Notes: a model not told the origin generated them from the sequence alone. 64,000 nt of DNA from an uncultured Gammaproteobacteria bacterium (GCA_964620905.1 CAZUKA010000001.1:222524-286523); one strand, 5' to 3'; counted from the first letter of the stretch, positions 2,717 to 64,000 are shown. A program made the numbers and translations.

Positions 2717-3724
2717 TTATATAATATTTAAATACAAATTTTCCAAAGCCAACTGGGAATTTAGATTAGCTTGATTCAAATTACGTAAATCATTCATTCT
2801 CTCCAAAACATTTTTTATTTCTTGTGACGTAAAATGTCGGGCAAATTTCTCCAAAGATACTCGCAATTCTTGGTATCTTATTTGTGTTGTTAAACCAATT
2901 TTTATCAATAAAACATCTCTAAAGACTCTAGTCCAAATGTCCAACTCCTTATTGGTTAAAAGACTCCTTTCTGTAAAGAATTTTTTTGTTGTGATTTCTT
3001 TTTTTATAAACGCAAATTTTTTGTCAAGAGTTTGACTATAAAGTAATAACTTACTTTTAACATTTTCATTTTCAGCTAACCAAAAATCTTCATTTTTTAA
3101 ATACTCATCAATCAAACTTGGCAATCCTTGAGTAATTCGATAAATGTTTTCAATTTGCTCAGAATTTAATTTTTTTATTAATAAATAATTTGTCAATTCT
3201 TTTTTACCAATATGAGCAAACTGAACTATTTGACAACGGGAGACAACAGTTGCAGGCAAAAAATCTTTATGTTCGGCAGTCAATATAAAAATCGTATTAC
3301 CAGCTGGTTCTTCTAAACTTTTTAGTAAGGCATTGGCGGCTTCTTCGTTCATTGTTTCTGCCTCATGAACTATCACTACTTTGTGCTGGGCTGACATTGA
3401 CCGTAATGATAACCTTTGAATAAGTTCCCTAATCTGCTCAATTGTTATATTTTTACTATCAGCATTTTTTTTCAAAATATAAAGATCAGGATGAATACCT
3501 AATTTTACTTGACGACAATGTTCACATTGATTGCAAGGTACAATTTCTTTTTTTGAATTTTCACCACAAAAAATTATTTGGCTAAAAAAATCTGCGGTTA
3601 TATTTTTATTTGTCCCCTTTGGCCCAATAAACAAATAAGCATGAACAAAATCACGTCTTTTAGCTAGTCGTATTAAAAAATTTTGTACACTCTGACCTAC
3701 ACAAATTTCAGAAAATATATTCAT
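2717..3724 (-). CDS. holB: DNA polymerase III delta-prime subunit
   Basis: AAA+ clamp-loader fold: Walker A-like GPKGTNK, zinc module CNQCEHC, and SRC motif (TVVSRCQIVQF). Confidence 0.7.
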   Translation of the reverse strand: MNIFSEICVGQSVQNFLIRLAKRRDFVHAYLFIGPKGTNKNITADFFSQIIFCGENSKKEIVPCNQCEHCRQVKLGIHPDLYILKKNADSKNITIEQIRELIQRLSLRSMSAQHKVVIVHEAETMNEEAANALLKSLEEPAGNTIFILTAEHKDFLPATVVSRCQIVQFAHIGKKELTNYLLIKKLNSEQIENIYRITQGLPSLIDEYLKNEDFWLAENENVKSKLLLYSQTLDKKFAFIKKEITTKKFFTERSLLTNKELDIWTRVFRDVLLIKIGLTTQIRYQELRVSLEKFARHFTSQEIKNVLERMNDLRNLNQANLNSQLALENLYLNII

Positions 3725-3807
3725 AATTTAACTATAAAATAACACAAAAATGAGTTTTTGGCAAATTAAAAAAGTTCGATGTTATCAGTTTATTATTTAC
3801 TAAAAGA

Positions 3808-4905
3808 TTAACTAACCAAAAATTTTAAAGTTTTTTCTGCAACTTTTAGCCAATCAAATTGTTCCGCGTGTTTTAGACCCTGATTAACTAATGTTTGACG
3901 CGCGGCGAAATCAACATTTATTCTTTTGAGCAAAGCCACTAATTCAGATTTATTATCTGGCTCAAAATACCAAGCTGCCTGACCCCCTATTTCCGGCAAT
4001 GAGGTTGTATTGGAACAAATCACCGGACAGCCACAAGCCATAGCTTGAATAACAGGTAAACCAAAACCTTCAAACAGAGAAGGAAAAACAAAAGCTCTGG
4101 CCAAATTCAATATAACCGGAACATCTTCCTCGGCAATATATTCTAAATATTTTATTTTATCATTATGGTGGATAGCTTTTAATATATCATCCCCACCAAA
4201 ACCTAAACGACCTGCTAAGACTAAATTAAAGTCAGGATTATGACTTAAAAAAAGTTCAAAAGCAGCAACTAGCAATTTAATATTTTTCTTTTTTTCCAGA
4301 CGACCAATATAAAAGAAAAACGGTTTGTTAAAATTGTATTTTTCTTTTATTTGGGTTAATAGAGATTTATCCTGGATAATTCTATATTTTGATTTATCAA
4401 ATCCCAGCGGCATAACAGCAATTTTATCGGGAGAAACATTAAATCTATTTAAGATATCATTTTTGGTAAACTGTGAAATAGTAATTATTCTTTTAGCAAA
4501 TTTAATCGACCACCAAGCACTAAACCGATGATAAAATCTTGCAAGGGTCTGATATATTTCTGGATTGTGCAGAAAACCCAAATCATGAATAGTAACAACA
4601 CAGCGACTACGGTGAAACAAGGGCACACTATGAGCCGGAACAAATAAAATATCAGGTGGATTAATTAACATTTCCCAGCTCAATCGTAAATGAGTCCAAA
4701 TGTATTTGACTGGCCAGGATAAAATCTTGACGTGGAAATTTGTGGATAAATTTAAGGGCAAATCAAATGCATCTTTTCTGGTATATAGCCAATACTCATT
4801 AGTTTTATCAATTTTAGATAAATATGAAATTAAATGATAAGAATACCATTCTGTTCCAGTTTTATACTTTTTCCCGGCTCGTGAGGCATCAATACCAATA
4901 ATCAT
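3808..4905 (-). CDS. Glycosyltransferase family 4 (GT-B)
   Basis: C-terminal EX7E-type motif region FEGFGLPVIQAMACGCPVI typical of GT4 retaining glycosyltransferases. Confidence 0.65.
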   Translation of the reverse strand: MIIGIDASRAGKKYKTGTEWYSYHLISYLSKIDKTNEYWLYTRKDAFDLPLNLSTNFHVKILSWPVKYIWTHLRLSWEMLINPPDILFVPAHSVPLFHRSRCVVTIHDLGFLHNPEIYQTLARFYHRFSAWWSIKFAKRIITISQFTKNDILNRFNVSPDKIAVMPLGFDKSKYRIIQDKSLLTQIKEKYNFNKPFFFYIGRLEKKKNIKLLVAAFELFLSHNPDFNLVLAGRLGFGGDDILKAIHHNDKIKYLEYIAEEDVPVILNLARAFVFPSLFEGFGLPVIQAMACGCPVICSNTTSLPEIGGQAAWYFEPDNKSELVALLKRINVDFAARQTLVNQGLKHAEQFDWLKVAEKTLKFLVS

Positions 4906-7830: not shown

Positions 7831-9301
7831 AAATTTTTTTTTCCGATTTATTGACCACTGCGACCAACCAAAACAAAATTCCCAAGCCTAAAGGGTGATT
7901 TAGGTAAGGTGTAGTTAGATTGGTAATTAATATTGCCACAAAAGCAAGCAAAAAAGCAACCGACAAATCTGTTTTTGCTAGCCAGGCTCGACTTAAAAGC
8001 AAATAGATAAAATATAAATAGACAAAAGTACCAACTAATCCAAATTTCAAAAAAATATCAAGGTAGCCCCATTCAAAAGCGTAAGTTGAATAATTATCGG
8101 CATATTCTTGTCCTAAGGATAAAATTCTAGGATCTCTACTTTGATAACTGACAACCGAGCCAAAACCTGAACCAAAAAATAGATTATTCTTAATAGCCAA
8201 TAATAAAGGTTCTAGCTGTTGTAAACGAGTGTTACTAGCTGGTTCAGAAGAAAAATTTTGTAAGCGACCTATAAACAAATCGTTACTAGTAACTGTTACC
8301 GCTGGCCAGGGGAATCTAATAACAAAAAAAACTAAAAAAGCTGATAAGAAAATAATGCTAAATAAAATCAATTTATATTTTAAAAATTGCCATAAACTGT
8401 TTTTTTGGAAAAAAATATAAACTAATAATACTACTAAACCGCTGATTAAACCAAGCCAAAAAGACCTTGAATAACTCATCAAAACAACAGATAAACCAAA
8501 TATTGCCAGCAAACCTAATTGATAAAAAGATAAAATTTCTATTTTCTTTTGATAAGTACGCCACCATAAATAGATAATCACCAAAAGTAAAAACAATGCC
8601 ATAATCTGACTTTGCATAAAAACACGCCAAAAATTACCTGCGACAAAAGTAATTTCTCCTAGTCTAAAATCTCTTGTCCAAAGATACAACTCATTCGCTA
8701 AGACTAAAAAATTATGAGAAAAAATATATAACAATACAACAGTTTTAATCCATAACCAAATTATTCCTGATAACCATATATGCCATAAATCCGACAGATA
8801 TTTTTTATCAAAAAACAACCAAGGGATAAACAGTAATAAATAAAGCCAAGCATTGCCGTCAAAAATAACATCTACTAAATTATTTTTAAAAAAACCATTT
8901 ATAAAAACAAACAATAAATAAACCATTAAACCTAAATAAACAAAAAATATTTTTTTTTCAATCAGATTAAATTTCGTCAAACTGATTCGGTTTAAAAAAA
9001 AATATTTAACAGATGAAATGATTACAATTAACCAAATGAACATACGTAGTGACAATGTTTGACCAAATATATCAACAGAAAATATATAACCAAAAGATCC
9101 TACCAATAATTCACCACTGGCAATCAGCAGACCATAATTTAAATTTCGCCAAGTTAACCAGCCAATTATTGCCGCGACAAAAAAATATACCAACTCCCGG
9201 GTTACCGGTTGTTGCCAGGTAATAAATGACAGGACTTCTATCAACAGTATAATAAAAAAGTAAGTCAATATCTTTTCTCTTTTTATTTTTAAAAAATTCA
9301 T
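7817..9301 (-). CDS. Polytopic membrane protein, O-antigen polymerase/ligase (Wzy/WaaL)-like
   Basis: 494 aa with at least 10 predicted TM helices and one larger extracytoplasmic loop near the C-terminus. Embedded in the GT2/GT4/flippase cluster. Assignment by context and topology only. Confidence 0.4.
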   Translation of the reverse strand: MNFLKIKREKILTYFFIILLIEVLSFITWQQPVTRELVYFFVAAIIGWLTWRNLNYGLLIASGELLVGSFGYIFSVDIFGQTLSLRMFIWLIVIISSVKYFFLNRISLTKFNLIEKKIFFVYLGLMVYLLFVFINGFFKNNLVDVIFDGNAWLYLLLFIPWLFFDKKYLSDLWHIWLSGIIWLWIKTVVLLYIFSHNFLVLANELYLWTRDFRLGEITFVAGNFWRVFMQSQIMALFLLLVIIYLWWRTYQKKIEILSFYQLGLLAIFGLSVVLMSYSRSFWLGLISGLVVLLVYIFFQKNSLWQFLKYKLILFSIIFLSAFLVFFVIRFPWPAVTVTSNDLFIGRLQNFSSEPASNTRLQQLEPLLLAIKNNLFFGSGFGSVVSYQSRDPRILSLGQEYADNYSTYAFEWGYLDIFLKFGLVGTFVYLYFIYLLLSRAWLAKTDLSVAFLLAFVAILITNLTTPYLNHPLGLGILFWLVAVVNKSEKKIYETT

Positions 9302-10167
9302 TTTTTTCTATTTATTTTTTCCCAAGCTTGGACTAAAGCTGCTAAAATAATACTAAGAGGGTTAAATAGCTTTAAGAAATAATAAGCTAAACGGGAATGG
9401 TGTTTTGAAACATAATAAAATAAACTATTATTAAAAAGTCTTTGTTCGGAAATAGCAGCTAACTGTTTAAAACTAGCACCACGAAAATGAATAATTCTAA
9501 CAGCTGGTTCAAAATATATTTCAAAACCAGCTAGTCTTGCCCGTTTACAAAAATCTACTTCTTCAAACCAAATAAAAAAATTTTTGTCAAAACCATTTAA
9601 TTGCTCCCAAACTTCTCGTCGTAAAGCAAACAATGCACCCATCACTTGCTGAACATTAGCTGGCTGATCATAATTAAAATTGGAACATAAATATTTTTTT
9701 AAAACATTTGGAAACAAATGATGTAATTTTAAAAGAATAATCCACAAATCAAATACTCTGGGAAAATTTCTAACTGATGGTTGTATACTAAAATCAGGGT
9801 TTAAAATCTGTCCTCCTAAGACACCTATTTTTTTATTAGCTCTTATAGACTGATAAATAATTTCTAAAGTATCTGGATATAGCTTAATATCGTCATTTAA
9901 AAATAAAAAACACTCTCCCTGAGCAACCGCAACTCCTTGCCAACAAGCAGTGGCAAACCCTAAATTGGTATTATTCACGATCAATTTTACTTGGGAAAAT
10001 TTGTTTTTAACCATCTCTATACTACCGTCAGAAGAGGCATTATCAACCACAATAACTTCCAAAATCAAATTGGGTAAATTTTGGTAAATTGAAACTAGTG
10101 TTTGCTCTAATAAATCACGTACCCGCCAAGAAACAATAATAATTGATAAATTTATTTGTTCAGACAT
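9298..10167 (-). CDS. Glycosyltransferase family 2
   Basis: LSIIIVSWRVRDLLEQTLVSIYQN ... VIVVDNASSDGS. Confidence 0.65.
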   Translation of the reverse strand: MSEQINLSIIIVSWRVRDLLEQTLVSIYQNLPNLILEVIVVDNASSDGSIEMVKNKFSQVKLIVNNTNLGFATACWQGVAVAQGECFLFLNDDIKLYPDTLEIIYQSIRANKKIGVLGGQILNPDFSIQPSVRNFPRVFDLWIILLKLHHLFPNVLKKYLCSNFNYDQPANVQQVMGALFALRREVWEQLNGFDKNFFIWFEEVDFCKRARLAGFEIYFEPAVRIIHFRGASFKQLAAISEQRLFNNSLFYYVSKHHSRLAYYFLKLFNPLSIILAALVQAWEKINRKK

Positions 10168-10210
10168 AGATATATTTTACCTTTTTTTAACAAACAAAAA
10201 AAGTGTAAAA

Positions 10211-10230
10211 AAAGCCCCAATCAGGGCTTT
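10211..10230 (-). terminator. Rho-independent terminator downstream of the GT2 gene at 10401..11096
   Basis: Hairpin aaagcccc-aatca-gggcttt, followed on the minus strand by a T-run (plus-strand aaaaaaa at 10204-10210). Confidence 0.5.
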
Positions 10231-10400
10231 ACCAACCAGGTTTAATTTTATTTTTGTATCGCATCCTGTGGAATAATTCCCTAGGGAAAAATATCCCCAA
10301 ACCAAAGCAAATGAGCAAAAATAAAATCACAAGTAGATTACGTATCATTATCCTCCTTATTTATATGTAGAGATAATAATAAAATATTAAATACATGCAG

Positions 10401-11096
10401 TCAATATAAATTATGTTTTTTTATAATAATTTCTTTTGCATGAAAATATTTTACTATTGAAGCAGGTGTATAACCAACTAAAGGCCAAGGTAAATTATAA
10501 AAAAATTTAGGCCACCAAGTTGACATGTGCCCAGCCGAGGGTTTAATTATTTTATAACAAACTTCAAAAATATTAAAACCTTTTTTTCCCTGTTGCAACA
10601 AAGTCAACCATAAATCCCAATCTTGAAATTTTTCCAAGGATTCATCAAAACCAACAAAATCATCACGACGTAGCAATGAAGTAGTATGGATGTAATTTTC
10701 TTGTTTTAATTTACTAGCAGAAAAAGTTTGACTGAGGATCAATTTCCAGCCAAGCTTATAAGAAGAATAAACATAACTTGCTTGCGGATTAGAAAATAAC
10801 GTCTGTAACATAATTGACAACATATTTGGTTTCATTATTACATCATCATCAACAAAGATAACATACTCGCCTCGTGATAAACTAAAACCTCTATTTCTAG
10901 CTACTGGTGCACCTTGGTGATTTTGTCGATAAAAAATTATTTCAGGAAAATTAATTAATAATTTTTTTACATCATAATCAGAACCATCATCAACCACAAT
11001 AATTTCATAATCTTTATAGGTTTGTTGTCTGATACTTGCCAGGCAACGTGGAAGTAATTGTCTGTGGTTGTAGGTTGGAATTATTATTGAAATCAT
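10401..11096 (-). CDS. Glycosyltransferase family 2
   Basis: ISIIIPTYNHRQLLPRCLASIRQQTYKDYEIIVVDDGSDYD, textbook GT2 N-terminus. Confidence 0.7.
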   Translation of the reverse strand: MISIIIPTYNHRQLLPRCLASIRQQTYKDYEIIVVDDGSDYDVKKLLINFPEIIFYRQNHQGAPVARNRGFSLSRGEYVIFVDDDVIMKPNMLSIMLQTLFSNPQASYVYSSYKLGWKLILSQTFSASKLKQENYIHTTSLLRRDDFVGFDESLEKFQDWDLWLTLLQQGKKGFNIFEVCYKIIKPSAGHMSTWWPKFFYNLPWPLVGYTPASIVKYFHAKEIIIKKHNLY

Positions 11097-55485: not shown

Positions 55486-56724
55486 TCATTTTACTTGTTC
55501 TATTTTCAGTAAACGATTATATTTTGCCAATCTTTCAAAACGAGCCGGGGCACCACTTTTTATATATTCAGCTCCGACCGCTACTGCCAAATCAGCTATA
55601 AAATCATCAGCGGTTTCACCGCTCCGGTGAGAGACAACTATTTGGTATTTATTCTTTTGTGCAGTAATAATAGTTTGCATCGTTTCTGATACCGTGCCAA
55701 TTTGATTTGGTTTAATCAAAATAGTATTGGCAACTCCCAGTTCAATACCACGTTGTAATCGCTCTTGATTGGTGACAAAAAGATCATCTCCAACCAACAA
55801 AAGTCTTTGACCTAATCGTTTAGTCAAAATTTGCCAATTGGACCAATCATCTTCAGCTAATCCATCTTCCACCAAAAGCAATTGATATTTTTTTATCCAG
55901 CTTTGATAAAGCTTTATTAATTTTTCAGCATCTATATTTTTACCTTCAAATTCATATTTTTCACCATTGAAAAATTCCGAAGCGGCAACATCTATAGCTA
56001 ATTTTACTTCGTGACCAAAATCATAACCCGCCCGCTTAATTGCTTCAACCAACAACTGCAAAGCGACTTCACTGTTTTTCAATTTTGGGGCAAAACCACC
56101 TTCATCCCCCAAACCAGTTGAAAGATTTTTCTGACGTAATATTTTTTTTAACTCATGATAAATCTCCGAACCAGCCTGTAAACGTTTAGTAAAAGTTGAT
56201 AACTGGGGTACAATCATAAACTCCTGGATAGCTAGACCATTATCAGCGTGCCGCCCACCGTTTAAAACATTGAACATTGGATAGGGTAAGCGTGTTGATT
56301 TTTTAAAACCGTAAATCCGACGTAAGTATTCATACAAAGGTAATTTAAAATAAAAAGCACAAGCTCTGATATAAGCCAACGACACTGCTAAAATAGCATT
56401 GGCTCCGAGGAATTTTTTTGCTATGGTACCATCCAAAGCACAAAGATTATAGTCCAGATCAATAGGATCAGAAAAAGCTTTATTAATTAATTCCGATGCA
56501 ATAATCTTGTCAATATTAGCAACTGCTCTTTTTACACCTAAACCCTGATATCTTTTTCCGCCATCGCGTAACTCATGAGCTTCATGACGACCGGTAGAAG
56601 CACCGGATGGCACCAAGGCGGTTGCTTTAATACCAGAATTTAGTTCGATCAAAGCAGCCACAGTGGGATTGCCCCGTGAATCAAGTATCTCCAGTCCGCG
56701 TAATTTTTTTATTTTTGGTGTCAT
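55486..56724 (-). CDS. eno: Enolase
   Basis: ILDSRGNPTVAALIEL N-terminus, metal and substrate motifs (SHRSGETAD, IKPNQIGTVSE). Confidence 0.9.
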   Translation of the reverse strand: MTPKIKKLRGLEILDSRGNPTVAALIELNSGIKATALVPSGASTGRHEAHELRDGGKRYQGLGVKRAVANIDKIIASELINKAFSDPIDLDYNLCALDGTIAKKFLGANAILAVSLAYIRACAFYFKLPLYEYLRRIYGFKKSTRLPYPMFNVLNGGRHADNGLAIQEFMIVPQLSTFTKRLQAGSEIYHELKKILRQKNLSTGLGDEGGFAPKLKNSEVALQLLVEAIKRAGYDFGHEVKLAIDVAASEFFNGEKYEFEGKNIDAEKLIKLYQSWIKKYQLLLVEDGLAEDDWSNWQILTKRLGQRLLLVGDDLFVTNQERLQRGIELGVANTILIKPNQIGTVSETMQTIITAQKNKYQIVVSHRSGETADDFIADLAVAVGAEYIKSGAPARFERLAKYNRLLKIEQVK

Positions 56725-57230
56725 CTTAATACTTTTATAATATCATCGGTATTATATTGATTTGGGCCTACACCGTCAGGGCCAAATGATCCAATCACCG
56801 CCACTACTTGGCAACTGCTACCGCCAGCACAAGGTTCATCATCTTCATTAATATAATAATCAGTATCAAAAAAATAATCATTTCCCCAGGCATCTGTTGG
56901 TATGCTGACTAAATATGGTCCTTGCCAGCCAAAATAATTGCCATCGGTGGCAACCAAACCAGCAGCTGGGGTAGATAAATCCCAAATTTCATTACCATTG
57001 CCTTGATTTATCTCTTCAGCGGTCTGATGCCCTGGCCATTCTCCAGTATCAATCATCAACTGACTAAAGGTTTTATATAAAGTATCAATTTCACTTTGCG
57101 CTTTGGCAATTTTAGCTTTTTCTCTGGCTGATTTAACTGACGCCACGGTGATGGTTGCTAAAGTACCAATAATAGCAATGACGACTAAAACTTCTATTAG
57201 AGTAAAGCCTTTTTTATTTATTTTTCTCAT
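56721..57230 (-). CDS. Type IV pilin / pseudopilin (prepilin-type N-terminal cleavage-methylation domain)
   Basis: KKGFTLIEVLVVIAIIGTLATI class-III signal peptide (G^FTLIE). 169 aa. Start and stop each overlap pgk and eno by 4 bp. Confidence 0.75.
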   Translation of the reverse strand: MRKINKKGFTLIEVLVVIAIIGTLATITVASVKSAREKAKIAKAQSEIDTLYKTFSQLMIDTGEWPGHQTAEEINQGNGNEIWDLSTPAAGLVATDGNYFGWQGPYLVSIPTDAWGNDYFFDTDYYINEDDEPCAGGSSCQVVAVIGSFGPDGVGPNQYNTDDIIKVLR

Positions 57231-59049: not shown

Positions 59050-59397
59050 TTACTTCAACCAGGGGTTTTTATTGATCGTAATAGTAAAATATTTTTCATG
59101 GTTTATCCTTTCAAGGTAAATTTCTTCTTCATTATAATTGTTCACAAAATAATTTTTTTGTGTCAAAGCTAATTTTATTAGATAAACCATGTGTGCCAAT
59201 GAGAAAATTTTCTCCAATCTGGCTAAATCATACTTATTTTGATCTCCTTTTGCTATTCCGGGAAGAAGAACTTGTTCGTGGGGATAATAAAAAAGGCAGC
59301 CATAACCTTTATTTTCTATTTCTTTTAAAAAATCTTCAATAAATTTTTTGAAGTGTTCAGGTAAAACTACTAGGTCATAATATTTGGAGTTTAGCAT
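59050..59397 (-). CDS. Hypothetical protein (115 aa)
   Basis: ORF with flanking terminator. No recognisable motif. Confidence 0.35.
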   Translation of the reverse strand: MLNSKYYDLVVLPEHFKKFIEDFLKEIENKGYGCLFYYPHEQVLLPGIAKGDQNKYDLARLEKIFSLAHMVYLIKLALTQKNYFVNNYNEEEIYLERINHEKYFTITINKNPWLK

Positions 59398-59486: not shown

Positions 59487-59506
59487 CCCCGGTTTATAAC
59501 CGGGGG
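59487..59506 (-). terminator. Rho-independent terminator after the acidic-peptide ORF (end of the 64.0..59.5 kb operon)
   Basis: ccccggtt-tata-aaccgggg. On the minus strand the stem is followed by TTATTTTTTGAGG. Confidence 0.55.
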
Positions 59507-59512
59507 TATATT

Positions 59513-59629
59513 TTACATATCTTCATCCTCATCGTCTATATCCTCATCCATATCTTCCTCATCCATATCTTCCTCATCAGTACCTTCTTCTTCCATATCA
59601 TCACCTGTCAAAAAATCTTCATTTGACAT
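59513..59629 (-). CDS. Candidate 37-aa hyper-acidic peptide
   Basis: Manual minus-strand translation gives MSNEDFLTGDDMEEEGTDEEDMDEEDMDEDIDDEDEDM*. No clear Shine-Dalgarno. Sits 85 bp after the histidine-kinase stop, same strand, with a terminator immediately 3'. Confidence 0.35.
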   Translation of the reverse strand: MSNEDFLTGDDMEEEGTDEEDMDEEDMDEDIDDEDEDM

Positions 59630-59720
59630 ATTGGTTATTTAATTATTAAAAAGGAACAAATATTGTAAACATTATAACAAAAAAAACAAACTTTCCGAAC
59701 AAAAGATATCCACAGAAAAT

Positions 59721-61340
59721 CTACTCTAAAGGTAAAGTAAATTTAAAAGTTGTACCTTTATTTTCGCCCTCGCTCTCGGCCCAAATATTACCACCGTGTC
59801 CTTCAATAATTTTTTTGGCAATATAAAGCCCTAACCCCACACCGGATGTATCAACGCGGTTAATATCTTTGCCCCGACGAAATTTTTGAAACAGTTGATC
59901 AAGTTCATCATAAGAAATTCCTTTACCGTTGTCTTGAACTTTAACTAAAATATATTTATCCATATTTTTTACCGAAACACTGACCCAACCGCCAATTGGT
60001 GTATATTTAATTGCATTATCCACTAAATTCATGATGACATCGGTCATTTTATCACTATCAAATTGGAATAAAGGTATGTCGTTTTCTTTAAATTCAACCT
60101 TAATATGTTTAGTAGCAGCTTCAATGGCTAGGGATTTAACAATATCCCTGACCAGCTGATTTATATCAGTTAAACTCTTATTTATTTTTAGACGACCTGA
60201 TTCAATCCGAGAAATATTTAGAAAAATATTTATTAATCGAATTAGCCGTTCAGAATTGCGTAACAACACCCCAACTATGTCGGCTTGTTTTTTGGATAAT
60301 TTTCCAAAATCACCCTCTTGTAACATTGATAAATAACCCTTAATAGCTGACAAGGGGGTACGTAATTGGTGAGAAGTAATTGATAAAAATTCGGTCTTAG
60401 CTTCATCTAATTGTTTAAGACGTTCATTGGCTGCTTGTAAATCGGCGGTCAATTTTTCCAATTTTTCTCGTTGTTCAACTTCTTTTCTCACACTTTTGAT
60501 CAGAAAAAAACCAACAAACAATAAGGCATTAAAAATAATTAAACGTAAAACTATGACATTAATATTGTTGGTAAAGAAAACTTCGGCTAATGAACTAAAT
60601 GCAAGGACGAAAACCAATATTTCAGTAGCAACAACTTTAATATTTAATAAATGATGTTTTAAAATTGCATAAGCAGTGAAAACAATAAAAGGAAAAAAGA
60701 ATACCGCGCCTAAGGCAGTATAAGTAGGATTATTCAAAAAAGCCGGAAAAATAAAATTAAAAATAATTATCAAACTAAAAGTTAATACCGTTCCGGTCAG
60801 AATTAAACGCAATGGTAAAATTTCTTTGGTTTTCAATTTTTTAATTTTTTTTATCAAAATATAAATCGCACTAGCTACCAAGCCAATATTCAACAGCCCA
60901 AAAAAAATAATACCCGGTCCATTGGTTACCGAAGTTGCTCCACCAGTTATTAGCACTCCGTTGATTTCTTTGAGTATAAAAGGTGTTAAAGTTAGAACTG
61001 AAACTAAGCTAACAACGGGAAATAACAAAAATTTATAATATTTTGAAAAATCAATCCGATAATTTGGATAAACGTAAAAAAATTGAAAGATAAAAAAAGC
61101 TTGCCAAACAGCAAAAAATAGCACCAGACGAAGTAGCCATAAAATAATTTGAGGATTAATAATACTGTAACTTAAATAATTTACTCCACCCCAAACTACA
61201 GTAACTAAAACAAATAAAGCAAAGGAAATATTGGTAATACTACGAATATTTCTAATATATACAATTATCCCCAAAATTACTGAGATTACTGTGACCAAGC
61301 CAACCGTAAACAAGTTTAAATTAAAAACAATACTATCCAT
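59721..61340 (-). CDS. Sensor histidine kinase with polytopic N-terminal membrane domain
   Basis: About 7 TM helices in the first ~290 aa, then coiled coil, HisKA (ITSHQLRTPLSAIKGY) and HATPase_c (N, G1 DNGKGI, G2 GVGLGLYIAKKI boxes). No response regulator gene is adjacent. Confidence 0.75.
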   Translation of the reverse strand: MDSIVFNLNLFTVGLVTVISVILGIIVYIRNIRSITNISFALFVLVTVVWGGVNYLSYSIINPQIILWLLRLVLFFAVWQAFFIFQFFYVYPNYRIDFSKYYKFLLFPVVSLVSVLTLTPFILKEINGVLITGGATSVTNGPGIIFFGLLNIGLVASAIYILIKKIKKLKTKEILPLRLILTGTVLTFSLIIIFNFIFPAFLNNPTYTALGAVFFFPFIVFTAYAILKHHLLNIKVVATEILVFVLAFSSLAEVFFTNNINVIVLRLIIFNALLFVGFFLIKSVRKEVEQREKLEKLTADLQAANERLKQLDEAKTEFLSITSHQLRTPLSAIKGYLSMLQEGDFGKLSKKQADIVGVLLRNSERLIRLINIFLNISRIESGRLKINKSLTDINQLVRDIVKSLAIEAATKHIKVEFKENDIPLFQFDSDKMTDVIMNLVDNAIKYTPIGGWVSVSVKNMDKYILVKVQDNGKGISYDELDQLFQKFRRGKDINRVDTSGVGLGLYIAKKIIEGHGGNIWAESEGENKGTTFKFTLPLE

Positions 61341-61341
61341 A

Positions 61342-62424
61342 TTAATTTATAAATTCAATATTTGGTACACATTTCAAAGCTAAGGCTCTAACTCGAGGTG
61401 CTAAACCAAGACGAAATGACATAGCAATAAGACCATCTTGAACATTAAATGAGTCGCTTAAAATTTTATAGTTAGTAATAATATTTTTGGTTTGTTCAGA
61501 ATTAAAGGCATTTCCCCCACCAGCCACTATTCGCAAACGAGCAAAACTAAGAGCGCTAACTGGGTGAAAAGCCAGACCGAGACCGTTGGCCTGTAACCAA
61601 ACTCTTTCCATAATTCTACCTGCCGTAACAAAATTTTCTTGGGTATCCTCAGGAATAATAATTGCTCCAACTGCTGCGCCAGTTGAATATAATTTTGCAT
61701 CTTCCTTAGCAACCATTTTAGCTAAACCTAATTTATTTAACCACACTGCTCTTGACCAATTACTGGCCAAAAAAAAGACAAATTTTTGTATGGGATTAAA
61801 TTCCATTGTACCAATATAAAACCCTTTTTTTAATTTAGCAAATTCTGCCGACGACCAAATTATATCTTTAAACAATAAAGCATGTAAATCTGGATGTTTT
61901 AAAATAATTTCTTCAATTGAACTCATGGCCCTGCCGACTATTTTTTTCTGCTCTAACTTTTCAAGCAAAACCAATTTTATTTTATTAGTTGGATCAATTT
62001 TAGATGAAGTTGAAGTTAAAGCTATTTTTTGTTCTGAAGTCAACAAATCATTTCTATACTTTCGTCGGTTTGTATGTCGTTGAGATAAATATGGCAACAA
62101 CGGATCAGGTAAAATATCACCGATATCTAGTGTTACTATGGCTACTAAATCGACTTGTTGTAAATCAGGAAATAAAACAATTTTAACATAAAACTTATGT
62201 TGAGAAGCTGCAATACAAATATTTTCAAGTAAAGCACCGTGGCCAATATAAGAGCCTCTTTGGTTGATGTTTAAAATCGGATTGTCTGACTTAGGTAAAT
62301 TGTAAATAAAAATTTGATTGTTTTTCACCTCAAACCGCCAAGGTTGAGAATTATCACCCGAAGGCGCATTTACTGCGGACGATAAAATTTTTTGTATAAT
62401 TTCTTTCATATTTTTATAAACCAA
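61342..62424 (-). CDS. Nitroreductase-superfamily protein with tandem (degenerate + canonical) lobes, SagB/ThcOx-like layout
   Basis: VNAPSGDNSQPWRFEV (APS-x2-N-x-QPW nitroreductase motif) at aa ~20-35. A second-lobe FMN motif LSQRHTNRRKY sits at aa ~108. 360 aa total. Confidence 0.5.
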   Translation of the reverse strand: MVYKNMKEIIQKILSSAVNAPSGDNSQPWRFEVKNNQIFIYNLPKSDNPILNINQRGSYIGHGALLENICIAASQHKFYVKIVLFPDLQQVDLVAIVTLDIGDILPDPLLPYLSQRHTNRRKYRNDLLTSEQKIALTSTSSKIDPTNKIKLVLLEKLEQKKIVGRAMSSIEEIILKHPDLHALLFKDIIWSSAEFAKLKKGFYIGTMEFNPIQKFVFFLASNWSRAVWLNKLGLAKMVAKEDAKLYSTGAAVGAIIIPEDTQENFVTAGRIMERVWLQANGLGLAFHPVSALSFARLRIVAGGGNAFNSEQTKNIITNYKILSDSFNVQDGLIAMSFRLGLAPRVRALALKCVPNIEFIN

Positions 62425-63508
62425 TAATATTTAAAAAATTATCCAATTCTTTTTTTCTGTATCTGATTTTGTTTGGCTGGTGAAAGGTTGGATCAAAAAT
62501 TTCATCAAAATTAATCTCATATTGGCCTGATTTTAAGGGTTGGTGGTTTGCCAACCTTCTAACTAAATAAGCAATCGACACACCCGATAACATCGCTGCA
62601 TCACCCAATTGTGGCCAAGAATAAATTGTTTTTCCAACCCGCAATAACGACCGCTGCATTCGTGGTGCAACTTTATCTTGACCAGCTATTTTTGTAGACA
62701 AACGCGGCAGCTCACTGGGCTTTATTTTTTTAAAATCACTGAGGGTGAAATTACCAATCCGACCATTAAATATTTTTAAATTTCTATTTTGATCATATCT
62801 TTCTACATCAACCAAAATATTATCAGCATTGTCAGTTGCCATAATCACCGGTATTCCCAGTTTACGCGCTGCCAATCTAATTTTAATTTTCATCTCCAAA
62901 TTATCCATTTCTTCAATTAGGACATCCAATTTGGGCGGACCGGCTAAAAAATTATACAAATTCTTATCTGTTATCCCCTGAGAAAAAATTTTAATATTGG
63001 CATAGGGATTTATTTGATAAATTTGTTGACTAGCTAAAGTACATTTACTCTTCCCGATATCAAATAAGGTATATCTGACACGATTCAAATTGGATGGTGA
63101 TAAAATATCCAAATCAGCCAATTTCATAAATTTACTACCCCCCATCACGGCTATGGAAATAGCAGCATGACTACCAACACTTAAACCAGCTACTCCAACC
63201 TTGCAATCATAAAATTTTTTTTGTTCTACTTGGGTTATAATTTCTCTGTTTCTCCCAGTTCTGACAGTCAAAAAATCTTTTTCTGGCAAAACGTGTACAT
63301 ATTTATCTAACCATGGAAAATAGAGCCAATTACCTTTTCTTGCTCGACGAATAAATTCAGCCAATGGCTGATGATAATTTTTATTAAATCGACACTGCGG
63401 ATTTTGCAATAAAAATAAATCAACTAATTGGTCATAATAAGTGTCAACCAATTTAGACTGACTTATAGATTTAATATTTTTTACAATTATTGGTTTTTCT
63501 TTATCCAT
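62414..63508 (-). CDS. E1-like (ThiF/MoeB/MccB-type) adenylyltransferase with ~100-aa N-terminal extension
   Basis: TGRNREIITQVEQKKFYDCKVGVAGLSVGSHAA (Rossmann GxGxxG) ... KLADLDILSPSNLNRV (Mg/ATP Asp and Arg finger). The N-terminal ~100 aa has no E1 homology, i.e. MccB/PaaA-like peptide-clamp/RRE position. Confidence 0.6.
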   Translation of the reverse strand: MDKEKPIIVKNIKSISQSKLVDTYYDQLVDLFLLQNPQCRFNKNYHQPLAEFIRRARKGNWLYFPWLDKYVHVLPEKDFLTVRTGRNREIITQVEQKKFYDCKVGVAGLSVGSHAAISIAVMGGSKFMKLADLDILSPSNLNRVRYTLFDIGKSKCTLASQQIYQINPYANIKIFSQGITDKNLYNFLAGPPKLDVLIEEMDNLEMKIKIRLAARKLGIPVIMATDNADNILVDVERYDQNRNLKIFNGRIGNFTLSDFKKIKPSELPRLSTKIAGQDKVAPRMQRSLLRVGKTIYSWPQLGDAAMLSGVSIAYLVRRLANHQPLKSGQYEINFDEIFDPTFHQPNKIRYRKKELDNFLNIIGL

Positions 63509-64000
63509 TTTTGTTTTGTACCTGGTTTAAAATATTTTTCGTGTTCATACGGCCAAAAAATTATTTTGGGAATTGTTCGGTTAGGATATTCTTCAGCTGT
63601 CCGTCGATACGATGAGTTATCAATTTTTAGTTGTTCAACTACTACATGCTTAATCCTACTGACTAATTTACTACTGCTTTTAACCTGGGGTAATAATTCA
63701 ATATTTAGTTCTAAATATTGATCAACATTTTTATCATACCTAATCATCATGGTGAATTTTCCCGTGATACTTTTCAACAAATCTTTTTGCCACAGCGCTT
63801 TTCTAATTGTTTCCGGATAGATCTGAAAGCCAAAAAAGCTTACTGAAAAATCTTGCCGTTCAAACACATAAACAAATGGTAAATTCCATAAGGTATCACC
63901 TAAATGATATTTTTTTATATAACTATTCAAATTTATCCCCTGTTCAGTCAATTTTTTATCAGCAGTTGCTAATGTAAAAACACCACCGTAGTCATGTAAA
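63487..64000 (-). CDS. Hypothetical protein, 3' part only (gene continues beyond window end)
   Basis: The minus-strand frame stays open to position 64000 (... LHDYGGVFTLATADKK-LTEQGINLN ...). The track's TTG start at 63951 is probably internal. 22-bp overlap with the E1-like gene implies the same operon. Confidence 0.4.
   Translation of the reverse strand, partial: LHDYGGVFTLATADKKLTEQGINLNSYIKKYHLGDTLWNLPFVYVFERQDFSVSFFGFQIYPETIRKALWQKDLLKSITGKFTMMIRYDKNVDQYLELNIELLPQVKSSSKLVSRIKHVVVEQLKIDNSSYRRTAEEYPNRTIPKIIFWPYEHEKYFKPGTKQKWIKKNQ

Follow-up and report, generated by a model that had tools for sequence, protein, structure and literature searches.

Gene content and conservation of the locus

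Investigation of the minus-strand genes at the end of the window (the whole stretch of DNA analysed, 64,000 nucleotides) revealed genes encoding a PaaK-family adenylate-forming ligase, a ThiF-like E1 protein, a nitroreductase-superfamily flavin oxidase and a membrane histidine kinase, followed by a hyper-acidic small gene and an intrinsic terminator (Table 1). The ligase and E1 genes overlap by 22 bp, a single nucleotide separates the nitroreductase and kinase genes, and the E1/nitroreductase junction is either an 11-bp overlap, if the nitroreductase starts at a TTG (61342-62424), or a 4-bp gap, if it starts at the ATG (61342-62409) favoured by gene callers and homolog alignments. An earlier, sequence-only reading had described these genes as one operon with 22-bp, 11-bp and 1-bp junctions; this layout was borne out, with small coordinate corrections, in that the spacing between the kinase gene and the acidic ORF is 91 nt, not 85 bp, and the ORF has 38 codons, not the 37 residues proposed. 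Contigs L001, L004, and L006 are identical to the window and extend the locus past its edge at position 64000, where they complete the first gene as a 503-aa PaaK-family ligase and show a gene encoding a Leu/Phe/Trp-type amino-acid dehydrogenase 1 nt upstream of it, so that the operon comprises at least five genes.

Table 1. Features of the locus, in window coordinates
Feature	Position	Strand	Remark
Gene 1 (PaaK-family adenylate-forming ligase), C-terminal 170 codons of 503 aa	63487..64000	-	open to window end
E1, ThiF-like ATP-dependent cyclase (predicted), putative N-terminal half of a split TrzS/OxzB-type enzyme, 364 aa	62414..63508	-	
Nitroreductase-superfamily flavin-dependent oxidase, Acg-like fused two-lobe fold, putative C-terminal half of a split TrzS-type enzyme, 355 aa	61342..62409	-	
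Membrane histidine kinase, HisKA_7TM-type, 539 aa	59721..61340	-	
Extended -10 element TGTTATAAT, ahead of acidic ORF	59671..59679	-	read from sequence
Hyper-acidic small gene, 38 codons, 63% Asp+Glu, lineage-specific	59513..59629	-	
Intrinsic terminator hairpin and T-run	59487..59505	-	operon's first terminator downstream

Regarding conservation, the neighbourhood of the four-gene block was compared across loci of 80 Patescibacteria species (E1 identity 43-76%), in which the order ligase, E1, nitroreductase and 7TM histidine kinase is kept and the genes flanking the cassette differ, giving many distinct contexts. The ligase is present in all 69 evaluable loci, the nitroreductase lies directly 3' of E1 in 74/77 and the kinase is found downstream in 57/61. 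The cassette was also detected in Microgenomates-type, Saccharibacteria and Woykebacteria contigs, and the enzyme pair together with a membrane sensor kinase, often with a stand-alone receiver in addition, occurs in at least 183 Patescibacteria species. An operon of five to six genes that is kept across Parcubacteria, Microgenomates and Saccharibacteria despite their tiny genomes is likely to be important to their lifestyle.

The ThiF-like cyclase and the flavin oxidase

E1 matched the NCBIfam model NF005901 ("Rv1355c family") at 1.6e-84 (284.5 bits, model positions 35-347), and the nitroreductase matched the C-terminal half of the same model (4.9e-43, 147.4 bits, positions 373-706) as well as NF011424 (4.9e-54) and the Acg family (7.9e-34; nitroreductases with two fused lobes), in agreement with the two-lobed nitroreductase fold originally assigned to the third gene. 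Rv1355c is TrzS, in which a ThiF-like cyclase is fused to a flavin oxidase and which was shown biochemically to convert N-acyl-Trp to N-acyl tryptazolones by ATP-dependent cyclisation and O2-dependent desaturation (Kleetz et al., J Biol Chem 2025, PMC12856293). Fusions of E1 and nitroreductase were found in cassettes of at least six lineages (L025, L034, L054, L076, L087, L089), and the four fused Patescibacteria orthologs scored against NF005901 reached 534, 450, 381 and 351 bits over the full length, of which only the first clears the curated cut-off of 476 bits. E1 and the nitroreductase thus appear to be a split copy of a Rv1355c/TrzS-type enzyme, and the chemistry suggested for them below rests on this homology; since the two window proteins and three of the four fused orthologs score under the cut-off, their substrate could differ from that of TrzS.

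The adenylation site of E1 is intact, the GxGxxG-like and DxDxxxxSNLNR motifs (GVAGLSVGSH and DLDILSPSNLNR), K155 and ATDN (D226) being invariant in 25 homologs. D226 is the putative equivalent of TrzS D217, as judged from the ThiF motif rather than from direct alignment. The Pfam ThiF domain starts at residue 90, which gives the N-terminal extension a length of ~90 aa, so the description of this protein as an E1 with an intact ATP site and a non-E1 extension holds. In the nitroreductase, conservation of APSGxNSQPWxF, R111, N114, R115, and Y118 is 94% or higher (n = 70 sequences).

Generic ThiF and MoeB models also match E1 (1e-22 to 1e-9), as would be expected of an ordinary sulfur-carrier activator in thiamine or molybdenum-cofactor synthesis, but these matches lie under the models' cut-offs and are far weaker than that to the Rv1355c family. 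No ThiS, MoaD or rhodanese gene was detected in Pfam lists for 10 kb either side of the cassette, no ORF of 55-120 aa with a Gly-Gly end was found in the window, L001 or L002, and the E1 sequence has no CxxC zinc site. Such a role, already doubted in the sequence-only reading, is effectively refuted.

A second possibility is an MccB/PaaA/TOMM-like module for RiPP-like or ubiquitin-like activation or modification of a peptide or protein C-terminus, the substrate being the acidic 38-aa peptide, as had been suggested initially. The acidic ORF is a genuine small gene. Its orthologs in L007 and L008, of 42 and 45 codons, are located ~100 bp after the kinase gene; all indels are multiples of 3, the N-terminus M[SP]N[DE]D[FY] and the C-terminus [DE]DM are conserved, an extended -10 (TGnTATAAT) is kept ahead of the ORF, and the terminator stems differ in sequence but retain their pairing. 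In the window the ORF is followed, as previously noted, by a hairpin (59505-59487; 8-bp stem with six G-C pairs, followed by a T-run); with no terminator detected between the kinase gene and the ORF, read-through from the operon is probable. However, no comparable ORF was detected in the other 78 species loci, so that it occurs in three closely related species, this one included, among 80+ loci, against near-universal enzyme and kinase genes; the ORF is best regarded as a lineage-specific, separate small gene that happens to share the operon terminator and is not a core component of the cassette.

The E1 extension likewise speaks against peptide modification, as it falls inside the NF005901 match, and one fused ortholog clears the cut-off of this model full-length (534 vs 476 bits). 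Similarity of E1 to PaaA (3.4e-7) and MccB (2.5e-5) is confined to the core; the extension adds no alignment to these clamp-bearing proteins, no match to their RRE-like peptide-clamp domain being seen in these comparisons, and the cassette has no conserved precursor peptide. Neither E2 nor JAB genes nor a beta-grasp partner were found within 10 kb either side (Pfam lists), and YcaO (PF02624) was absent from precomputed Pfam matches of the called genes in the same interval and from six other cassettes. We therefore consider a peptide-modifying module very improbable. Two specific candidates were rejected: TOMM (SagBCD-type) azoline machinery, for which the YcaO cyclodehydratase was not found in the regions named, and bacterial E1-E2 conjugation (CBASS Cap2 or Bil), for which PADLOC models matched ~90 residues of the E1 Rossmann core only, at 6.8e-11 or weaker, with no E2 or JAB nearby. 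The operon hints instead at a small-molecule signalling system.

Ligase, sensor kinase and a possible pathway

The ligase has a PaaK fold with intact adenylation motifs and shows the features of the PaaK/F390-synthetase family (ANL fold, P-loop and C-terminal lid domain). In 58 loci it takes the position of an OxzA/TyzA/TrzA-type N-acyltransferase, and no N-acyltransferase was detected in Pfam lists around the cassette, here or in the other cassettes inspected, which suggests a different, possibly CoA-independent, entry to N-acyl amino acid chemistry. We know of no PaaK-family enzyme that feeds an oxazolone synthetase, and the acceptor of the ligase could also be CoA, with an unlinked acyltransferase performing the N-acylation. 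The slot 5' of the ligase gene holds an ELFV dehydrogenase in 24 loci, a HisC-like aminotransferase in 15/67 and, once (L096), an aromatic ammonia-lyase; the three are mutually unrelated and all are amino-acid-deaminating. Structurally, the ligase is closest to 4r1l, a PaaK-type enzyme of Bacteroides; this and the deaminating enzymes would fit catabolism or salvage of hydrophobic or aromatic amino acids by deamination and subsequent activation of the acid to a CoA thioester, E1 and the oxidase having a detoxifying or redox function. This is improbable, however, since the cassette lacks oxidoreductase or thiolase partners, known arylacetate catabolism has no place for E1 and the oxidase, and the deaminating enzyme is missing from ~40% of cassettes in which E1 and the oxidase are constant.

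Regarding the histidine kinase, HisKA (3.3e-18) and HATPase_c (6.8e-29) domains were detected, and HisKA_7TM was matched at 24.8 bits, under its cut-off of 28.6, which orthologs clear. Hydropathy indicates ~9 hydrophobic segments, followed by a coiled coil, the DHp and the catalytic domain, and no periplasmic, PAS or GAF domain was found in the protein. No variation was seen in H324 or in the N, G1, and G2 boxes; the transmembrane region matches the catalytic core in conservation and contains invariant polar residues. In a reciprocal test, four of four homologs of the sensor domain sit within the same cassette, which, with the constant position noted above, supports assignment of the kinase to the module. 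The kinase had been called an orphan, and indeed no receiver domain was found in the 64-kb window (tblastn, 17 receiver queries) and no response regulator within the ~74 kb examined in this genome (the window and a further 10 kb in L001). Stand-alone receivers adjoin the cassette in 10/80 loci and also in L087, L089, L093, and L096.

We favour, at a probability of roughly 0.55, the reading that the region is the 3' part of a Patescibacteria-conserved operon of at least five genes that makes a small heterocycle derived from an acyl amino acid (an oxazolone or close analogue) and is linked to a two-component sensor. The dehydrogenase, or in other species the aminotransferase or ammonia-lyase, would interconvert an amino acid, hydrophobic or aromatic, and the corresponding 2-oxo acid. 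The ligase may adenylate a carboxylic acid, possibly the deaminated skeleton from this step, and pass the acyl group to an amine (or CoA), giving an N-acyl amino acid and substituting for the acyl-CoA-dependent N-acyltransferase of known pathways. By homology to the TrzS, TyzB and OxzB systems, E1 would then cyclise this product at the expense of ATP and the Acg-like oxidase would desaturate it at C-alpha/C-beta. Lacking an extracytoplasmic domain, the 7TM kinase may detect this lipophilic product, or an analogue of it, within the membrane, or couple the pathway to signalling in another way. Many Patescibacteria live without oxygen; the characterised oxidases are O2-dependent, which counts against this reading.

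The same enzymes might instead make a non-signal product (such as a lipid of the envelope, an antimicrobial compound or some other heterocycle), with the kinase answering an unrelated cue and merely regulating expression of the operon. Homology fixes the reaction type, carboxylate adenylation and flavin desaturation, and not the substrate; nitroreductase-family oxidases such as AlbA desaturate diketopiperazines too. A methyltransferase-like gene is found in 11 loci, in one case as a fusion with the oxidase, and L087 has an alpha/beta hydrolase; such variation of accessory genes among species is typical of tailoring in secondary metabolism. A dehydro-diketopiperazine derived from a ligase-made dipeptide is one example of such a heterocycle. 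Retention of the kinase in the operon across deep Patescibacteria lineages and the location of all four examined sensor-domain homologs in the cassette would, however, be unusual for a generic regulator, and the purely intramembrane sensor fits a lipophilic ligand, so that a non-signal product is possible but somewhat unlikely.

A more specific form of the favoured oxazolone-type reading, a phylum-wide, self-contained signalling module in which a CoA-independent ligase/ThiF/flavin-oxidase route turns amino-acid-derived acids into an oxazolone-type autoinducer that is perceived by a dedicated intramembrane receptor kinase of the same operon, is speculative and rather unlikely in full. In lipophilic-autoinducer systems such as CqsA/CqsS and LuxM/LuxN, the synthase gene adjoins that of a histidine kinase with several membrane passes, which uses its transmembrane domain for sensing; the proteins are unrelated to those of the cassette, which is known here from its genes and has no known ligand or phenotype, so the likeness is one of layout only. 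In Patescibacteria, which are host-dependent and have tiny genomes, hardly any signalling or secondary metabolism has been characterised; if the signalling module were real, it would give oxazolones their first assigned receptor and these episymbiotic ultra-small bacteria their first described native system of chemical communication.

Relationship to known oxazolone systems

Oxazolone biosynthesis by ThiF-flavin-oxidase enzymes was discovered between 2021 and 2025, and the characterised enzymes use small N-acyl amino acids as substrates (PMC12856293; PMC10404671; bioRxiv 10.1101/2020.06.11.147165). Oxazolones were proposed as possible signals by the authors, although their physiological role has yet to be settled even in mycobacteria, which also leaves room for a non-signal product. 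The cassette bears on this question, as an enzyme pair hard-wired to a membrane sensor kinase provides a concrete, testable candidate receptor.

OxzA/OxzB of Pseudoalteromonas rubra (de Rond et al. 2020/2021, bioRxiv 10.1101/2020.06.11.147165) has the same ThiF-nitroreductase domain pair, OxzB turning N-acyl amino acids into oxazolones with the use of ATP, but OxzB is fused, proteobacterial and paired with an N-acyltransferase, with neither ligase nor kinase. The tyrazolone pathway TyzA/TyzB/TyzC (Rv2336/Rv2338c/Rv2337c; Grigg et al., J Biol Chem 2023, PMC10404671) is likewise a small-molecule pathway of analogous chemistry, and its cyclase and nitroreductase-superfamily oxidase are, as here, encoded by split, neighbouring genes of one operon. 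It differs in using a FeeM/AHL-synthase-like acyltransferase (TyzA) with acyl-CoA and in having no kinase, and a published similarity network places TyzB in another ThiF subcluster than TrzS.

The closest counterpart is TrzA/TrzS (Rv1356c/Rv1355c) of Mycobacterium, the TrzS family being the one that both proteins of the window match best. Common to both are a ThiF-like cyclase with the same N-terminal extension, an Acg-like flavin oxidase and signalling neighbours (cyclic-di-GMP genes flanking mycobacterial trzAS, as in M. tuberculosis, and the kinase here), and some Patescibacteria orthologs are fused exactly as TrzS. In contrast to TrzS, the window pair is split in two genes that score under the family cut-off (284.5 and 147.4 bits vs 476); the Patescibacteria cassettes lack a TrzA-type N-acyltransferase and always have the 503-aa PaaK-family ligase upstream instead, often add an amino-acid dehydrogenase or aminotransferase, and embed a 7TM histidine kinase in the operon, and the hosts are Patescibacteria rather than mycolic-acid bacteria. 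Thus, the early impression of a system not described before stands for the cassette as a whole, i.e., ligase, E1, nitroreductase and kinase in Patescibacteria, whereas the E1-nitroreductase pair within it belongs to a type that has been known since 2021.

Operon layout and the genes at its 3' end

The minus-strand reading frames are tightly packed: the first ORF overlaps the E1 gene by 22 bp, the E1 and nitroreductase genes are separated by 4 bp or overlap by 11 bp depending on the start codon, and 1 nt separates the nitroreductase from the kinase. The genes and their order had been read correctly from the sequence alone, while the gap behind the kinase is 91 nt rather than 85 and the acidic peptide has 38 codons rather than 37. 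No terminator-like site is present between kinase and acidic ORF in the window.

Features of the operon and its downstream region (window positions)
Feature	Position	Strand	Remark
First ORF, open to window end	stop at 63487	minus	ORF reading
E1, ThiF-family, 364 aa	62414-63508	minus	ORF reading
Nitroreductase-superfamily protein, 355/360 aa	61342-62409 (TTG start: 62424)	minus	ORF reading
Membrane histidine kinase, 539 aa	59721-61340	minus	ORF reading
Conserved 15 nt after kinase stop	59700-59715	minus	intergenic
Acidic ORF, 38 codons, 63% Asp+Glu	59513-59629	minus	91 nt after kinase
Hairpin, 8-bp G+C-rich stem + T-run	59505-59487	minus	terminator after acidic ORF
Promoter of 115-aa ORF	59472-59445		TTGACA-16-TATAAT, extended TG
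115-aa ORF	59050-59397	minus	no family match
Hairpin terminator of 115-aa ORF	59044-59026		
Type IV pilin/pseudopilin-like gene	56721-57230	minus	N_methyl, T2SSG

An identical E1 sequence is present on seven public contigs, six of them the loci L001 to L006, and extension past position 64000 on L001, L004 and L006 completed the first gene, which encodes the PaaK-family ligase of the cassette, 503 aa long. On the same three contigs a gene for a 350-aa ELFV (Glu/Leu/Phe/Val-type) dehydrogenase lies 1 nt upstream of it, and the operon therefore comprises at least five genes. Upstream of the dehydrogenase is a divergent gene of the vitamin K epoxide reductase (VKOR) family (L001 6906-7358); several lineages (L001, L007, L008, L031, L044, L053, L057, L095) have a VKOR gene next to the upstream end of the cassette, transcribed divergently in the window's clade and in the cassette's own direction in others.

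The peptide encoded by the acidic ORF contains neither Lys nor Arg. In two relatives, L007 and L008 (E1 76% identical), orthologous ORFs of 42 and 45 codons follow the kinase at a distance of about 100 bp. All three peptides begin with M[SP]N[DE]D[FY] and close with [DE]DM, their length differences are all multiples of three, a TGnTATAAT element upstream is conserved in L007 and L008, and the terminator stems of these two have changed in sequence with pairing kept. Judged by this comparison, the acidic ORF is a real gene and no artefact. A tblastn search of the peptide against 80 related loci gave no match, a false negative due to its composition, and the orthologs were found by direct ORF inspection. 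In the other 78 species loci no ORF 20-90 aa long reached 50% Asp+Glu, and the acidic ORF is therefore a lineage-specific small gene using the operon's terminator. Thus, of the earlier proposal that it encodes a candidate E1 substrate, the genuine small gene stands but a substrate conserved with the E1 does not.

The 15 nt directly after the kinase stop (TTGTGGATATCTTTT) are nearly invariant among the three related species though intergenic (~13790-13805 in L007 and L008); the conserved leader motif after the kinase stop, TGTGGATATC (core 10-mer), was not enriched elsewhere in the window. Just downstream, the 115-aa ORF has a perfect promoter and its own terminator, with an ortholog (38% identity) at the same position in L007 and none in L008. 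Further on, the pilin-like gene is situated between the phosphoglycerate kinase gene, which it overlaps by 4 bp, and the enolase gene, within an otherwise glycolytic gene string that includes two tandem iPGM paralogs (L002).

Family assignment of the E1 and the oxidase

In profile searches, positions 35-347 of the 722-position NCBIfam model NF005901 ("Rv1355c family protein") aligned with the E1 at 1.6e-84, against only 1e-22 to 1e-9 for ThiF/MoeB models. The nitroreductase matched the C-terminal half of the same model (4.9e-43), the C-terminal half of NF011424 (4.9e-54) and, at 7.9e-34, the Acg family of FMN oxidoreductases with two fused lobes. Its motifs APSGxNSQPWxF and R-x-x-N-R-x-x-Y are near-invariant among 70 sequences. 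Fused E1-oxidase proteins from Patescibacteria cassettes span the full NF005901 model with 534, 450, 381 and 351 bits, of which only the first exceeds the model's cut-off of 476 bits.

The N-terminal extension of the E1, to which a peptide-clamping role had been assigned, is indeed present and is well folded in an AlphaFold model (pLDDT > 90), with many invariant residues in the homolog alignment. The Pfam ThiF match begins at residue 90, and the extension therefore falls within the Rv1355c-family match and is not foreign to that family. The closest solved structure is AclA (PDB 9egb), for which no publication was found in a literature search. The adenylation motifs of ThiF proteins are retained in the E1, the ATDN Asp among them, and the protein has no CxxC pair. 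An ordinary role in thiamine or molybdenum-cofactor synthesis is in practice excluded. Scans for ORFs ending in Gly-Gly and for defence systems (PADLOC) were negative or returned generic results only.

Rv1355c is TrzS, which converts N-acyl-tryptophan, supplied by the acyltransferase TrzA, to N-acyl tryptazolone through ATP-dependent cyclisation and O2-dependent desaturation, and whose cyclase activity is abolished by mutating the Asp of the ThiF motif (Kleetz et al., PMC12856293); by motif, the ATDN Asp of the E1 would be its counterpart. The same chemistry was demonstrated for the split pair TyzB/TyzC, acting with TyzA (PMC10404671), and first of all for OxzB/OxzA of Pseudoalteromonas rubra (bioRxiv 10.1101/2020.06.11.147165). 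TrzS, TyzB/TyzC and OxzB are small-molecule enzymes, not peptide-modifying ones, and the E1-oxidase pair is of this already known kind; the peptide-activating module suggested by the sequence-only reading is disfavoured by the match to a family whose characterised members act on small molecules.

Conservation of the cassette and its kinase

With one genome scanned for each species, relatives of the E1 were found in 183 species, and the best 80 of these 183 loci, all from Patescibacteria-type MAGs with E1 identities of 43-76%, were analysed by tblastn and ORF clustering. The four-gene block proved to be conserved: a PaaK-like ligase was present in 69/69 loci with upstream DNA (directly upstream in 58), the oxidase lay directly downstream of the E1 in 74/77, and a full-length 7TM kinase ortholog followed on the same strand in 57/61, less than 400 bp from the oxidase in 48. 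Around it the neighbours differ widely across the 80 loci, with DnaK/DnaJ, tRNA synthetases, bactofilin and ABC transporters among them; selection, not a recently shared ancestry of the region, therefore holds the block together. Searches seeded with distant ligase homologs also recovered the cassette on contigs of Roizmanbacteria-type, Saccharibacteria and Woykebacteria. The Roizmanbacteria-type and Saccharibacteria versions encode fused E1-oxidase proteins of 761 and 718 aa and kinases with an additional GAF domain, and they have genes for stand-alone receivers on their flanks. In L094, two kinases of the cassette type (2888-4129 and 9053-10663) bracket the ligase-E1-oxidase block.

Tryptophanyl- and aspartyl-tRNA synthetase genes (ORF clusters 10 and 4, identified by motifs) occur within a few genes downstream of the kinase in about a dozen species (L010, L028, L038, L039, L043, L058, L063, L068, L071, L074, L082, L083). 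This may be plain synteny; the tryptophanyl-tRNA synthetase is a curious neighbour, since tryptophan is the amino acid used by the nearest characterised relative of the E1-oxidase pair.

The kinase has about nine hydrophobic segments with no sizeable loop, followed by a coiled coil and a DHp domain, and a domain search detected no PAS, GAF or HAMP domain in the window's protein. Its membrane region is conserved to the same degree as the catalytic core and includes the invariant polar residues N54, Y55, R71, K165 and K235. A search for sensor-domain homologs gave 32 mostly fragmentary proteins, used only to choose four long contigs; in this reciprocal test all four lay within the cassette. No response regulator was found in the window or a further 10 kb of L001, yet receiver-only regulators occur within 2.5 kb in 10 of the 80 loci; the kinase, earlier described as an orphan, is therefore one locally and not family-wide.

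The proposed pathway and known oxazolone systems

Among 67 evaluable loci, the slot directly upstream of the ligase is taken by an ELFV dehydrogenase in 24 and by a HisC-like class I/II aminotransferase in 15; in L096 it holds an aromatic amino-acid ammonia-lyase. About 40% of cassettes have no gene for an amino-group-removing enzyme. The dehydrogenase is closest to leucine (7e-48), tryptophan (9e-43) and phenylalanine (3e-32) dehydrogenases in the PDB and matches the ScyB model at 2e-57. That three unrelated amino-group-removing enzymes share one slot points to a carboxylic acid, the deaminated skeleton of an amino acid, as what the ligase is supplied with. Between oxidase and kinase, a methyltransferase-like protein is encoded in 11 loci (fused to the oxidase in L033) and an alpha/beta hydrolase in L087. 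An ApbE-type flavin transferase-like protein (ORF cluster 26, ~248 aa, by sequence reading) is encoded in L030, L036, L041, L049, L051, L064 and L065. In two of the seven loci it adjoins the ligase on the upstream side, in two it lies one gene further upstream, and in the others it is several genes away, once downstream; its role might be to serve the flavin oxidase.

Judging by its fold and by the invariant gene order, the PaaK-type ligase would adenylate the acid and transfer it to an amino acid, yielding an N-acyl amino acid; alternatively, its product may be a CoA thioester that an unlinked acyltransferase uses. To our knowledge, Patescibacteria generally lack fatty-acid and CoA metabolism, and direct ligation would suit such organisms. 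By homology to the characterised enzymes, the ThiF-like protein would then adenylate the free carboxylate of the small N-acyl amino acid, with closure of the ring, and the flavin oxidase would add the C-alpha/C-beta double bond, although the product may be a different heterocycle or not a signal. Gene order and domain architecture are consistent with a kinase that senses the product, or a lipophilic molecule related to it, within the membrane; alternatively, the kinase may simply regulate the operon. The cassette brings forward a candidate oxazolone receptor together with a conserved pathway linked to signalling, in a bacterial radiation about which little is understood.

Published analyses of the ThiF/flavin-oxidase pair centre on Actinomycetota and Proteobacteria. 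A literature search, with little coverage of subscription journals and hence no proof of absence, found no ThiF-nitroreductase or oxazolone system tied to Patescibacteria, a PaaK-type ligase or a histidine kinase. Compared with the known pathways, the PaaK-type ligase of the cassette would replace the acyl-CoA-dependent acyltransferases OxzA, TyzA and TrzA. The sensor kinases CqsS and LuxN are encoded beside their synthases, and the kinase of the cassette, encoded beside its biosynthetic genes, is proposed to sense in a similar way.
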